64,000 nt of DNA from Escherichia coli. GTDB taxonomy: Bacteria; Pseudomonadota; Gammaproteobacteria; Enterobacterales; Enterobacteriaceae. The DNA is taken from NCBI RefSeq assembly GCF_016026235.1, contig NZ_CP065613.1; one strand, written 5' to 3'. Both the position numbers and the translations under genes were made by a program. This document shows, in pieces, positions 19,247 through 37,575 of this stretch (the first letter of the stretch is position 1; the number at the start of each line of letters is the position of its first letter). The notes below the pieces were generated by a model. That model did no database searches, was not told the origin of the DNA, and was given only the letters and a program-made list of their open reading frames with translations.

Positions 19247-19740
19247 ATGGATCGAGAGTTAAAAAATCTGACGCTGAATATCAGTCAACTGGCGGCACTG
19301 TCAGGTGTACATCGCCAGACTGCTGCGGCAAGGCTGCAAAATCTACCCGTTGCAGGGGGCATGAAAGCAACCTCAAGCTTTATCGGGTGGTTGATATTGT
19401 GTCGGCATTTCTGGCATTACCACCGCCGGTTGCAGAAGGCGAAATGGACGCGCATGAGCGCAAAGCCTGGTATCAGTCTGAACGTGAGCGTCTTAAGTTC
19501 GAACAGGAAACGGCACAACTCATTCCGGCCAGTGATGTCAGACGGGAGTTTGCCATCTGGGCAAAAGCGGTCGTGCAGGTGCTGGAGACATTACCGGATA
19601 TTCTTGAACGTGACTGCGGTCTGCAGCCTGCCGCTGTGAGCCGTGTTCAGTCCATTATTGATGATCTGCGCGATCAGATAGCCCTGCGGGTGACTGAAGC
19701 AGGTGCGGATGATGAGGAGGAATTACAGCAGGAGGAGTAA
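19247..19740 (+). pseudogene. Terminase small subunit (Nu1-like), frameshifted at G-run 19355-19359
   Basis: N-terminal HTH MDRELKNLTLNISQLAALSGVHRQT in one frame; C-terminal part in the -1 frame; one extra G restores a Nu1-like protein. Confidence 0.6.
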
Positions 19741-21820
19741 TGCTGAATCAGGAAACCGCAAAGGCAGCACGAACCGATTCAGGTTATATCCTTCGCGCAC
19801 CAAGACGAATGCGGGTTGCTGATGCCGTTGCTCAGTATATGCGGGTGCCCATGGGGCAGGGAACTCAGTCCCGTGGGATCCGCTGGTGGCACCGTATGTT
19901 ATTGAGCCGATGAACTGCCTGGCCTCGCGTGAATACGACGCAGTGATATTTGTTGGCCCGGCACGAACCGGCAAGACTATCGGCCTGATTGACGGCTGGG
20001 TGATTTACAACGTGATTTGCGATCCTGCTGATATGCTGATCATTCAGATGACGGAGGAAAAAGCCCGCGAACACTCCAAAAAACGACTCGCCAGAACGTT
20101 TCGCGTCAGCCCGGAAGTGGTCAGTCGCCTGAGTCCGAACAAAAATGACAACAACGTTTATGACAGAACATTCCTTGCTGGCAACTACCTGAAAATCGGC
20201 TGGCCGTCAGTCAATATCATGTCCTCATCAGATTATAAATGCGTCGCGCTGACGGATTATGACCGTTTTCCGGAAGATATTGATGGTGAGGGGGATGCTT
20301 TCTCTCTTGCCTCAAAACGTACCACAACATTTATGTCCAGTGGTATGACGCTGGTGGAGAGTTCCCCCGGCAGGGATGTGAAGGATGTGAAATGGCGACG
20401 GACTTCACCGCATGAGGCTCCACCAACCACGGGGATACTGTCGCTCTATAACCGTGGCGATCGCCGTCGCTGGTACTGGCCCTGTCCACACTGTGGTGAG
20501 TATTTTCAGCCCTGCGGCGATGTGGTTGCTGGTTTCCGTGATATTGCCGATCCCGTGCTGGCAAGTGAGGCGGCTTATATTCAGTGTCCTTCCTGTTCAG
20601 GACGGATTATGCCTGAACAAAAACGTGAGCTGAACGGACGTGGGGTCTGGTTGCGGGATGGTGAATCCATCAATGCGGATGGCAGTCGTTATGGTGATCC
20701 CAGGCGTTCACGTATTGCGTCATTCTGGATGGAGGGTCCGGCAGCTGCTTACCAGACACTCTCGCAACTCGTTTACAAACTGCTTACTGCAGAACAGGAA
20801 TACGAGACAACCGGAAGTGAAGAAACACTCAGGGCGGTTATCAACACCGACTGGGGATTACCTTATCTTCCCCGCGCCAGCATGGAGCAACGAAAAAGTG
20901 AACTGCTTGAGCAGCGGGCAGAGCCTGTTCCTCCCCGCTGCGTGCCGGATGGTGTTAATTTCCTGGCGGCGACAGTGGATGTGCAGGCGGGACGTCATCG
21001 CCGTTTTGTGGTTCAGGTAACGGGTTATGGTTGCCGTGGCGAACGCTGGATTATTGATCGTTACAACATCACGCAGTCATTGCGTTGTGACAACAACGGA
21101 GAAAGCCTGCGAATTGATCCTGCTGGTTATCCTGAGGACTGGGATGTCCTGCTGACGGATGTTTTTCATAAAAGCTGGCCGTTGGCCTCCGATCCTTCTC
21201 AACAAATGCGACTGATGGCAATGGCGGTGGACTCCGGCGGTGAAGACGGGGTCACTGATAATGCCTATAAATTCTGGCGTCGTTGCCGTCGTGATGGCCT
21301 TGGTAAACGTATTTACCTGTTTAAGGGCGACAGCATCCGGCGCGCAAAACTGATCACCCGTACATTCCCTGATAACACCGGACGAACGGGCCGACGGGCG
21401 CAGGCCGCAGGTGATGTGCCGCTCTGGCTTCTTCAGACGGATGCCCTGAAAGACCGGGTGAATAACGCGTTATGGCGTGACTCGCCAGGTCCCGGCTATG
21501 TGCATTTCCCTGACTGGCTGGGGAGCTGGTTTTACGACGAACTGACGTATGAAGAGCGGAGCAGTGACGGGAAATGGAGTAAGCCGGGTCGAGGTGCCAA
21601 CGAAGCTTTTGACCTGATGGTGTATGCCGAGGCTCTGGTCATTCTGCATGGTTACGAGAAAATTCAGTGGCCGGATGCGCCGGAATGGGCATGCAGGGAA
21701 ACCTGGCTGGAGCGTGTCAGGGACGATGCCGGACTGTCAGCCTCGCCGGAGCCGGTATCCGTGTCCGTTAAAAAAAGAAACGAAAAAAAGTGGTGCCTGA
21801 TGAAGAAAACCCATGGGTGA
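19740..21820 (+). pseudogene. Terminase large subunit (gpA-like), frameshifted at G-run 19859-19861
   Basis: Conserved N-terminal segment (RAPRRMRVADAVAQYMRVP) starts at ATG 19740 in one frame; main body 19886..21820 (Walker A GPARTGKT) in another; one extra G joins them. Confidence 0.65.
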
Positions 21821-34166: not shown

Positions 34167-37100
34167 ATGGGTAAAGGCAGCAGTAAGGGGCATACTCCGC
34201 GCGAAGCGAAGGACAACCTGAAGTCCACGCAGTTGCTGAGTGTGATCGATGCCATCAGCGAAGGGCCGGTTGAAGGTCCGGTGGATGGATTAAAAAGCGT
34301 GCTGCTGAACAGTACGCCAGTGCTGGACACTGAGGGGAATACCAACATCTCCGGCGTCACGGTGGTGTTCCGGGCCGGTGAGCAGGAGCAGACACCGCCG
34401 GAGGGATTTGAATCCTCCGGCTCCGAGGCGGTGCTGGGTACGGAAGTGAAATACGACACGCCGATCACCCGGACCATCACGTCGGCAAACATTGACCGAC
34501 TGCGTTTTACCTTCGGCGTGCAGGCACTGGTGGAAACCACCTCAAAGGGGGACAGGAATCCGTCGGAAGTCCGCCTGCTGGTTCAGATACAACGTAACGG
34601 TGGCTGGGTGACGGAAAAAGACATCACCATTAAAGGCAAAACCACCTCACAGTATCTGGCCTCGGTGGTGGTGGGTAACCTGCCGCCGCGCCCGTTCAAT
34701 ATCCGGATGCGCAGGATGACGCCAGACAGCACCACAGACCAGCTGCAGAACAAAACGCTCTGGTCGTCATACACCGAAATCATCGATGTGAAACAGTGCT
34801 ACCCGAACACGGCACTGGTCGGCGTACAGGTGGATTCGGAGCAGTTCGGCAGCCAGCAGGTGAGCCGTAATTATCATCTTCGCGGGCGCATTCTGCAGGT
34901 GCCGTCGAACTATAACCCGCAGACGCGACAATACAGCGGTATCTGGGACGGAACGTTACAACCGGCATACAGCAACAACATGGCCTGGTGTCTGTGGGAT
35001 ATGCTGACCCATCCGCGCTACGGCATGGGGAAACGTCTTGGTGCGGCGGATGTGGATAAATGGGCGCTGTATGTCATCGGCCAGAATTGCGACCAGTCGG
35101 TGCCGGATGGCTTTGGTGGCACGGAACCGCGTATCACCTGTAATGCGTACCTGACCACGCAGCGCAAGGCGTGGGATGTGCTCAGTGATTTCTGCTCGGC
35201 GATGCGCTGTATGCCGGTATGGAACGGGCAGACGCTGACGTTCGTGCAGGACCGGCCATCGGATAAGGTGTGGACCTATAACCGCAGTAATGTGGTGATG
35301 CCGGATGATGGCGCGCCGTTCCGCTACAGCTTCAGCGCCCTGAAGGACCGTCATAATGCCGTTGAGGTGAACTGGATTGACCCGAATAACGGCTGGGAGA
35401 CGGCGACAGAGCTTGTGGAGGATACGCAGGCCATTGTCCGTTACGGTCGTAACGTCACGAAGATGGATGCCTTTGGCTGTACCAGCCGGGGGCAGGCACA
35501 CCGCGCCGGGCTGTGGCTGATTAAAACGGAGCTGCTGGAGACGCAGACCGTGGACTTCAGCGTGGGCGCAGAAGGGCTTCGCCATGTACCGGGCGATGTC
35601 ATTGAAATCTGTGATGATGACTATGCGGGGATCAGCACCGGCGGGCGTGTGCTGGCGGTGAACAGCCAGCCCCGGACGCTGACGCTCGACCGTGAAATCA
35701 CGCTGCCATCCTCCGGTACCACGCTGATAAGCCTGGTTGACGGAAGTGGCAATCCGGTCAGCGTGGAGGTTCAGTCCGTCACCGACGGCGTGAAGGTGAA
35801 AGTGAGCCGTGTTCCTGACGGCGTTGCCGGATACAGCGTGTGGGGGCTGAAGCTGCCGACGCTGCGCCAGCGCCTGTTCCGCTGTGTGAGTATCCGTGAG
35901 AACGACGACGGCACGTATGCCATCACTGCCGTGCAGCATGTGCCGGAAAAAGAGGCCATCGTGGATAACGGAGCGCACTTTGACGGCGACCAGAGCGGCA
36001 CGGTGAATGGTGTCACGCCGCCAGCGGTGCAGCACCTGACCGCAGAAGTCACCGCAGACAGTGGGGAGTATCAGGTGCTGGCGCGCTGGGACACGCCGAA
36101 GGTAGTGAAGGGTGTGAGCTTTATGCTTCGCCTGACCGTGGCCGCCGATGACGGCAGTGAGCGGCTGGTCAGCACGGCCCGGACGACGGAAACCACTTAC
36201 CGCTTCAGGCAGCTGGCGCTGGGGCGTTACACGCTGACGGTCCGGGCGGTAAATGCCCGGGGACAGCAGGGCGATCCGGCGTCGGTATCGTTCCGGATTG
36301 CCGCCCCGGCAGCGCCGTCGCGGATTGAGCTGACGCCGGGCTATTTTCAGATAACTGCCACGCCGCATCTTGCGGTTTATGATCCGACGGTACAGTTTGA
36401 GTTCTGGTTCTCGGAAACGCGGATTACCGATATCAGGCAGGTTGAAACCACAGCCCGCTACCTTGGCACGGGGCTGTACTGGATAGCCGCCAGTATCAAT
36501 ATCAAACCGGGCCATGATTATTACTTTTATATCCGCAGTGTGAACACCGTTGGCAAATCGGCATTCGTGGAGGCCGTCGGTCGGGCGAGCGATGATGCGG
36601 AAGGTTACCTGGATTTTTCAAAGGCAAGATAACCGAATCCCATCTCGGTAAAGAGCTGCTGGAAAAGTTGATCTGACGGAGGATAACGCCAGCAGACTGG
36701 ATGAGTTTTCGAAAGAGTGGAAGGACGCTAACGATAAATGGAATGCCATGTGGGGCGTCAAAATTGAGCAGACCAAAGACGGCAAACATTATGTCGCGGG
36801 TATTGGCCTCAGCATGGAGGACACGGAGGAAGGCAAGCTGAGCCAGTTTCTGGTTGCCGCTAACCGTATCGCGTTTATTGACCCGGCAAACGGGAATGAA
36901 ACGCCGATGTTTGTGGCGCAGGGCAACCAGATATTCATGAACGACGTGTTCCTGAAGCGCCTGACAGCCCCCACCATTACCAGCGGTGGCAGTCCTCCGG
37001 TATTTTCCCTGACATCAGACGGAAAGCTGACCGCTAAAAATGCGGATATCAGTGGTAGTGTGAATGCGAACTCAGGAACGCTCAACAATGTCACGATTAA

Positions 37101-37575
37101 CCAGAACTGTACGATTAAGGGCATGCTGGAGGCGACCCAGGTCAGAGGGGATTTCGTTAAAGCTGTATCAAAAGCCTTCCCGAAAAAAGTCGGTACGTGG
37201 GGTAACACGGAAACACCAAACGGTACGGTTACAGTCACCATCAGCGATGATCATAACTTTGACCGCCAGATTATTATTCCGCCCATTATTTTTAACGGTA
37301 TAGCGTATGACGATCCGGGGAGCGGAAATAACCTAGGAGGCACGCGATACACGGGTTATGGTTTTGAAGTTCGCAAAAACGGCGTATTAATCGCATCCAG
37401 AGAAACTAAAGGGGCCATTCCCGGTAGTTACAGTGCAGTTATTGATATGCCTAGTGGTGGTAGCGTCACTCTGGAGTTTAAGATTTTCCAGAAAGGCAAT
37501 CAGGGGGCAGGCAATATCACCGACTGTACGGTGATTGTGACCAAAAAAGCGGCTTCCGGCATCAGTATTCGTTGA
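34167..37575 (+). pseudogene. Central tail fibre / host specificity protein J, two single-base deletions (T-run 36614-36618; missing G near 36667)
   Basis: ORF 34167..36632 ends at GYLDFSKAR; lambda-like continuation resumes in other frames and then in ORF 36748..37575. Confidence 0.75.

Follow-up and report, generated by a model that had tools for sequence, protein, structure and literature searches.

The stretch analysed here is a window of 64,000 nucleotides (nt) from Escherichia coli (contig NZ_CP065613.1 of RefSeq assembly GCF_016026235.1; "the window" below always means this whole stretch), which carries at 18.7–38.3 kb the late (morphogenesis) arm of a lambdoid prophage. The arm contains the collinear set nu1, terL, portal, protease-capsid, tail genes, tape measure and J, and the annotations of two related prophages (L001 and L002) concur with this. 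To the right of the module lie a tail-fibre gene, sitABCD, uspF, ompN, nifJ (ydbK), ydbH, feaRB, tynA and paaZ, which are the genes around the Rac site in E. coli. As written, six of the morphogenesis genes are out of frame, and the origin of these frameshifts is the subject of this analysis.

The module is of the mEp460 type. Phages mEp460, mEp460_ev081 and Ayreon have 92–94% nucleotide identity to the window across 97–98% of positions 19000–38000, and the gene order is identical to that of the mEp460-like module of mEp460, Ayreon and phi458, with the window proteins at full length once repaired. The set typical of these phages comprises a DUF1441 small terminase, a GpA-type large terminase, a lambda-type portal, a ClpP protease-capsid fusion and lambda-type tail genes. 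The window differs from the phages in its six out-of-frame genes, and in that its module belongs to a prophage at the Rac site, adjoining sitABCD. Among 5,426 complete RefSeq E. coli genomes, the closest has 98.7% identity in the chromosome and 94–97% in the module. The host belongs to a lineage that is Shigella-like or enteroinvasive, because ipaH-type genes stand beside copies of the same phage module in sister assemblies, and some of the recorded protein names are those of E. coli O28ac or Shigella.

Alignment with intact relatives, for which prophages L001 and L002 plus closer relatives served as references in the site calls, places eight one-base shortfalls in the six genes, all within homopolymer runs of G, A or T that are 5–8 nt long when intact (Table 1). 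The longer runs at the two sites in J are present in L016, L019 and seven draft contigs (L027–L033). The original prediction, made from the sequence of the window, had described seven one-base deletions in homopolymers of six genes; the frameshifts in these six genes are present in the sequence, but a second terL lesion, in an A-run near the 3' end of the gene, had been overlooked. Two positions also needed correction in the alignment with intact relatives: the terL run placed at 19859–19861 is the G-run at 19853–19856, and the second lesion of J, given as a missing G near 36667, is a missing A. Runs are very unevenly distributed between the strands: on the coding strand of 18738–38339 there are 23 G-runs of at least 5 nt and two C-runs, and the undercalls fall in five of the 23 G-runs and in three of the 66 A-runs and T-runs.

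Table 1. Affected genes, control regions and other features of the window (positions in nt; run states as window versus intact relatives).
Feature	Position	Strand	Observation
Small terminase, Nu1-like/DUF1441	19247..19740	+	G5 versus intact G6 at 19355–19359; gap versus L002, L019 and L020
Large terminase, terL	19740..21840	+	Two lesions: G4 versus G5 at 19853–19856; A7 versus A8 at 21770–21776, near 3' end
Portal	22049..23553	+	G4 versus G5 at 22969–22972
ClpP-like prohead protease/major capsid fusion	23498..25557	+	G5 versus G6 at 24832–24836; G6 in L020, L021, L024 and L026
Tape measure	28735..31775	+	G4 versus G5 at 30948–30951; G5 in L016 and L019–L023, 0 mismatches nearby
Tail tip protein J	34167..37575	+	Two lesions: T5 versus T6 at 36614–36618; A4 versus A5 at 36663–36666
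mEp460-like morphogenesis module	18738..38339	+	Sole part of the window with run-length discrepancies; multi-copy in sister genomes
Control: early region of the same prophage	4935..16144		100% identity, 0 gaps, over 11,210 nt versus draft L034 (GCA_001907395.1); single-copy in the draft
Control: chromosomal flank, sitA to paaZ	42396..63999		100% identity, 0 gaps, over 21,604 nt versus draft L015 (GCA_001907395.1)
tRNA array	15833–16143		Met-CAT, Arg-TCT, Thr-TGT, Gly-TCC; in the prophage, upstream of lysis genes
IS3-family element	about 8799–10089		Open reading frames 8853–9671 and 9698–10036, minus strand; inserted in the early region relative to VL40

As had been predicted, one base added per site restores six continuous proteins, of 164, 700, 501, 686, 1013 and 1136 amino acids (aa). 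Four of these sizes (164, 700, 686 and 1013 aa) were compared with those annotated in L002 and are equal to them. In an exact look-up against a collection of ~15 billion proteins, all six repaired products were recorded residue for residue, each on 5 to >1000 contigs: the nu1-like product on at least 1000, the doubly repaired terL product on 138, the portal on 122 and the protease-capsid fusion on 172, with the tape measure and J products also recorded exactly. Six of the seven truncated products tested had no record in this collection, among them those of nu1 (130 aa), portal (339 aa), capsid (492 aa), tape measure (784 aa) and J (821 aa). The sole truncated product to be recorded was the 57-aa N-terminal fragment of terL, on 22 contigs, many of which are rich in insertions and deletions (indels).

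The lesions are confined to the module. The clean comparison set consists of 32.8 kb of single-copy window sequence matched to the same-lineage draft GCA_001907395.1, i.e. the two control regions of Table 1. Eight of 91 runs of at least 5 nt are affected in the module, against 0 of 170 in the clean set (Fisher p = 1.8e-4); at the per-base rate of the module, the clean sequence should hold 13.4 events, and the probability of finding none is 1.5e-6. The concentration of lesions in the module is not due to chance. The chromosomal genes flanking the prophage, predicted to be intact, are so, as their whole stretch is identical to a draft with full-length gene calls. Within the prophage itself, none of the 75 runs in the early genes is affected over 11.2 kb. 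Relaxed selection fails to explain the contrast, because these early genes are equally dispensable and are clean.

Genuine pseudogenisation, in which a cryptic prophage under relaxed selection collects real one-base slippage deletions, possibly with a defect in mismatch repair, is in our view quite unlikely. Shigella-like lineages are pseudogene-rich, and some decay of this prophage is real, as the IS3-family element (IS, insertion sequence) in its early region is shared with L034. Homopolymer runs are natural hot spots of slippage, especially without mismatch repair (PMC5854121), and two of the lesions have been found elsewhere, the capsid G5 in L019 and the terL G4, there as the only lesion, in L042–L044. 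However, in mutS lines of Vibrio both base substitutions and indels rise, 85–317-fold and 102–142-fold, respectively (PMC5854121), and substitutions would thus be expected alongside the indels after loss of mismatch repair. The module has eight indels and no substitutions in 19.6 kb, which is not a neutral mutation spectrum. In cells with intact mismatch repair, indels are known from the E. coli mutation-accumulation literature to be a rarer class than substitutions. Eight indels, no substitutions and no change in 170 other runs therefore fit neither a repair-deficient nor a repair-proficient regime. Mismatch-repair deficiency combined with relaxed selection was rejected, given the absence of substitutions and the unaffected early prophage genes.

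Other assemblies of nearly the same DNA provide a second line of evidence. Locus L019 (of assembly GCA_014155105.1) aligns with window 18738–38339 over 19,609 columns with 0 mismatches and eight one-base gaps, seven of which are shortfalls of the window. The remaining gap, at 25611–25614 just past the capsid gene (C4 in the window, C3 in L019), is a shortfall of L019 itself, since L020 and L021 have the same run length as the window. The discrepancies that can be ascribed to the window are all contractions, with no expansions, and all window lesions except the capsid G5 are absent from L019. For terL, portal, capsid and tape measure, the longer run is found in the draft contigs L021 (14.4 kb), L022 and L023 (3.2 kb each), which match window 19479–32013 with 0 mismatches; for both J sites it is found in seven contigs, L027–L033 (of 5.4–5.9 kb plus one of 56 kb), with 0–1 mismatch. 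Drafts of related isolates thus have the longer run at seven of the eight sites, i.e. at every site they cover; the nu1 site lies outside their coverage, and its longer run comes from L019 and L020, which are from multi-megabase assemblies, and from the more distant L002. L016 (GCA_900449985.1), the orthologous Rac-site locus, is free of substitutions against the window over 34.2–49.7 kb except at two sites, and is without all three of the window lesions that it covers. Nearly all differences between these three assemblies of essentially the same DNA concern the length of homopolymers, and most of the runs concerned are not the same from one assembly to the next.

L016 has run changes of its own (L016 5899–6449 and 13106–13942), for example an additional G at window 34634, which disrupts J, and an additional T at 41677, by which sitC is reduced to 278 aa. 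Given these changes and those private to L019, the public assemblies of the lineage are generally unreliable at runs inside these prophages.

The same comparisons weigh against pseudogenisation, as no inheritance of the lesions was seen in the related-isolate drafts and L016, where the runs are intact, and only the capsid lesion is common to one other assembly. Seven of the eight lesions are in no other assembly, and the orthologous locus of GCA_900449985.1 lacks the three lesions covered. Known cryptic prophages such as Rac, Qin and DLP12 resemble the window in its Rac-site location and in the IS insertion of its early region. Their decay, however, proceeds by deletions, IS insertions and substitutions shared by descent, whereas the window module has run contractions only, without substitutions, and these are not common to sister assemblies except for the capsid G-run (L019) and the recurrent terL G-run.

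The module is a repeat in sister genomes. In GCA_014155105.1 there are two related copies, and an identical J segment occurs once at the Rac site (L024) and once at the Qin site (L025, which is also the location of L019). GCA_900449985.1 holds at least five copies (L016, L017, L018, L020 and L026) with identical tracts of several kb, and two of its contigs end within copies of the module. Segments of the module also occur in drafts as stand-alone short contigs (3.2 kb; 5.4–5.9 kb), as collapsed repeats do.

We consider the eight frameshifts to be residual errors of the assembly consensus and not mutations, with a probability of about 0.82. The lineage would carry several near-identical copies of the mEp460-type lambdoid head and tail module, and such multi-kb repeats can be spanned by long reads only, for which the typical leftover error is a homopolymer one base short. 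Polishing with uniquely mapped reads, whether by short-read polishers or by long-read polishers filtered on mapping quality, mends single-copy sequence and leaves repeats at draft quality. Outside the repeat, the chromosome would then be free of errors, while the repeat would be strewn with one-base contractions, which gene callers take for pseudogenes. Homopolymer-length errors are typical of long-read consensus sequences, and errors in repeats often survive polishers that depend on unique alignments, as benchmarked by Wick and Holt (Polypolish, PMC8812927). The case described there (Wick and Holt, 2022; PMC8812927) is like the window in its one-base run errors, which there lie in repeats and in the window lie in a module that is multi-copy in sister genomes, in its clean non-repeat sequence and in its apparent frameshifted pseudogenes; the window differs in that its errors are all contractions, five of the eight being in G-runs on one strand. 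The changes observed in the window are one-base run changes, unaccompanied by substitutions and mostly private to one assembly, with the exceptions of the capsid run common to L019 and the terL N-terminal fragment that recurs elsewhere. Of the two alternatives offered by the original prediction, homopolymer undercalls in the prophage are therefore favoured, and decay under relaxed selection is unsupported. The sequence of the window alone, as was stated then, does not separate them, but comparison with other assemblies does. The check it proposed by alignment with orthologues found related prophages in a single frame, with one more base at each site.

Several points weigh against assembly error as the source of all eight lesions. 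The capsid G5 is also present in L019, an independent assembly, which means either that it was inherited or that the same systematic error was made twice, and the terL G4 is the sole lesion in L042–L044, so this run may slip in vivo too. Draft contigs that are collapsed repeats merge the copies into one consensus, in which a lesion of one copy could be masked. In addition, we infer the sequencing platform and polishing history of the window, as well as the copy number of the module in its own genome (the last from sister assemblies only), which is a further difference from the case of Wick and Holt.

A mixed origin, with one or two real slippage mutations, inherited or recurrent, and the rest assembly errors, is unlikely; the best candidates for real mutations would be the capsid run and the terL G-run at 19853–19856. 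Both the window and L019 carry the capsid G5, with 0 mismatches between them, and in L042–L044, Logan contigs from SRR36067881, SRR21951906 and SRR26082357, the terL change from G5 to G4 occurs in a module with otherwise intact gene calls. The terL G-run could thus be a real site of recurrent slippage. However, L019 comes from a contig of 4.68 Mb, is therefore probably long-read too, and has its own shortfall at 25611–25614, while the draft L021 has G6 in the capsid gene and G5 in terL with 0 mismatches over 12.5 kb. Contractions of the nu1, terL and capsid G-runs also recur in phage backgrounds that are 90–97% identical to the window, and most of the assemblies concerned are fragmented by many other indels. 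The same G-run states in heavily indel-ridden assemblies of diverged phages are the pattern of a systematic basecalling bias, and this recurrence points to such a bias at the three runs.

The recurrence has also been considered from the side of function. That the nu1, terL and capsid G-runs are hypermutable contingency sites, whose contraction and expansion turn the production of particles by mEp460-like prophages off and on, would explain why contractions recur in many unrelated assemblies, including the terL-only contigs L042–L044, but we regard it as very improbable. Programmed or phase-variable frameshifting, with the runs acting as slippery or contingency sites whose function is to turn the production of particles on and off, is scarcely credible even though the three G-runs are contracted in many independent assemblies. 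The contracted states are mostly in assemblies with many other indels, all eight sites would have to be off simultaneously, and orthologues are in a single frame in L001, L002, L019, L020 and L021, in viable phages and in hundreds of prophages. Programmed frameshifting was rejected, since the two-frame arrangement is not conserved.

Some further features of the prophage were noted. The early part of the prophage, as far as the tRNA array reaches (tRNA-Gly ends at 16143; window 16085–16144), is identical to the Rac-site draft L034, which then diverges. Beginning at 18738 or earlier, and as far as 38339, the window matches the Qin-site copy of GCA_014155105.1 (L019/L025) identically, with an identity of only 95% to the Rac-site copy of that assembly (L024), and beyond 38339 it follows the right arm of the Rac site. 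The prophage thus looks like a hybrid, either because the Rac-site and Qin-site prophages recombined or underwent an inversion with each other, or because the assembly path through the repeats is chimeric. In the tRNA array, the gene with a CAT anticodon is annotated as tRNA-Ile in strain VL40, and because of this annotation it probably encodes a lysidine-modified isoleucine tRNA. The insertion of the IS3-family element is real and inherited, because the element is identically present in draft contigs L034 and L035. An IS600 in recE, supposed by analogy with VL40, was rejected, as the alignment shows the window to be without IS600 there.

Among the genes of the module, the tail assembly chaperone pair (28039–28763) consists of a G-like open reading frame ending in ...CCGGAAAAGTCCTGA at 28425, with a GGAAAAG stretch near its end, and a T-like open reading frame at 28434–28763. 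In this layout, that of lambda G/GT, a programmed -1 frameshift is expected. Exact look-up of gpL found the same protein in 1,990 blocks, and a 78-aa open reading frame upstream of the portal gene had no exact record, its start probably being wrongly chosen.

A cluster of one-base homopolymer frameshifts in a repeated prophage of a complete genome calls for comparison with reads or sister assemblies before it is given a biological reading. Repairing the lesions and looking up the exact products is a quick screen for this purpose. A false call of a defective prophage is thereby prevented. Annotated at face value, the window would contain a dead prophage with six pseudogenes, and this reading would enter the counts of pseudogenes and defective prophages that are used to argue for genome decay in the Shigella-like lineage. 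The frameshifts are present in the sequence but most probably are not a feature of the organism, in which the morphogenesis module is probably intact and the lesions a problem of assembly quality.

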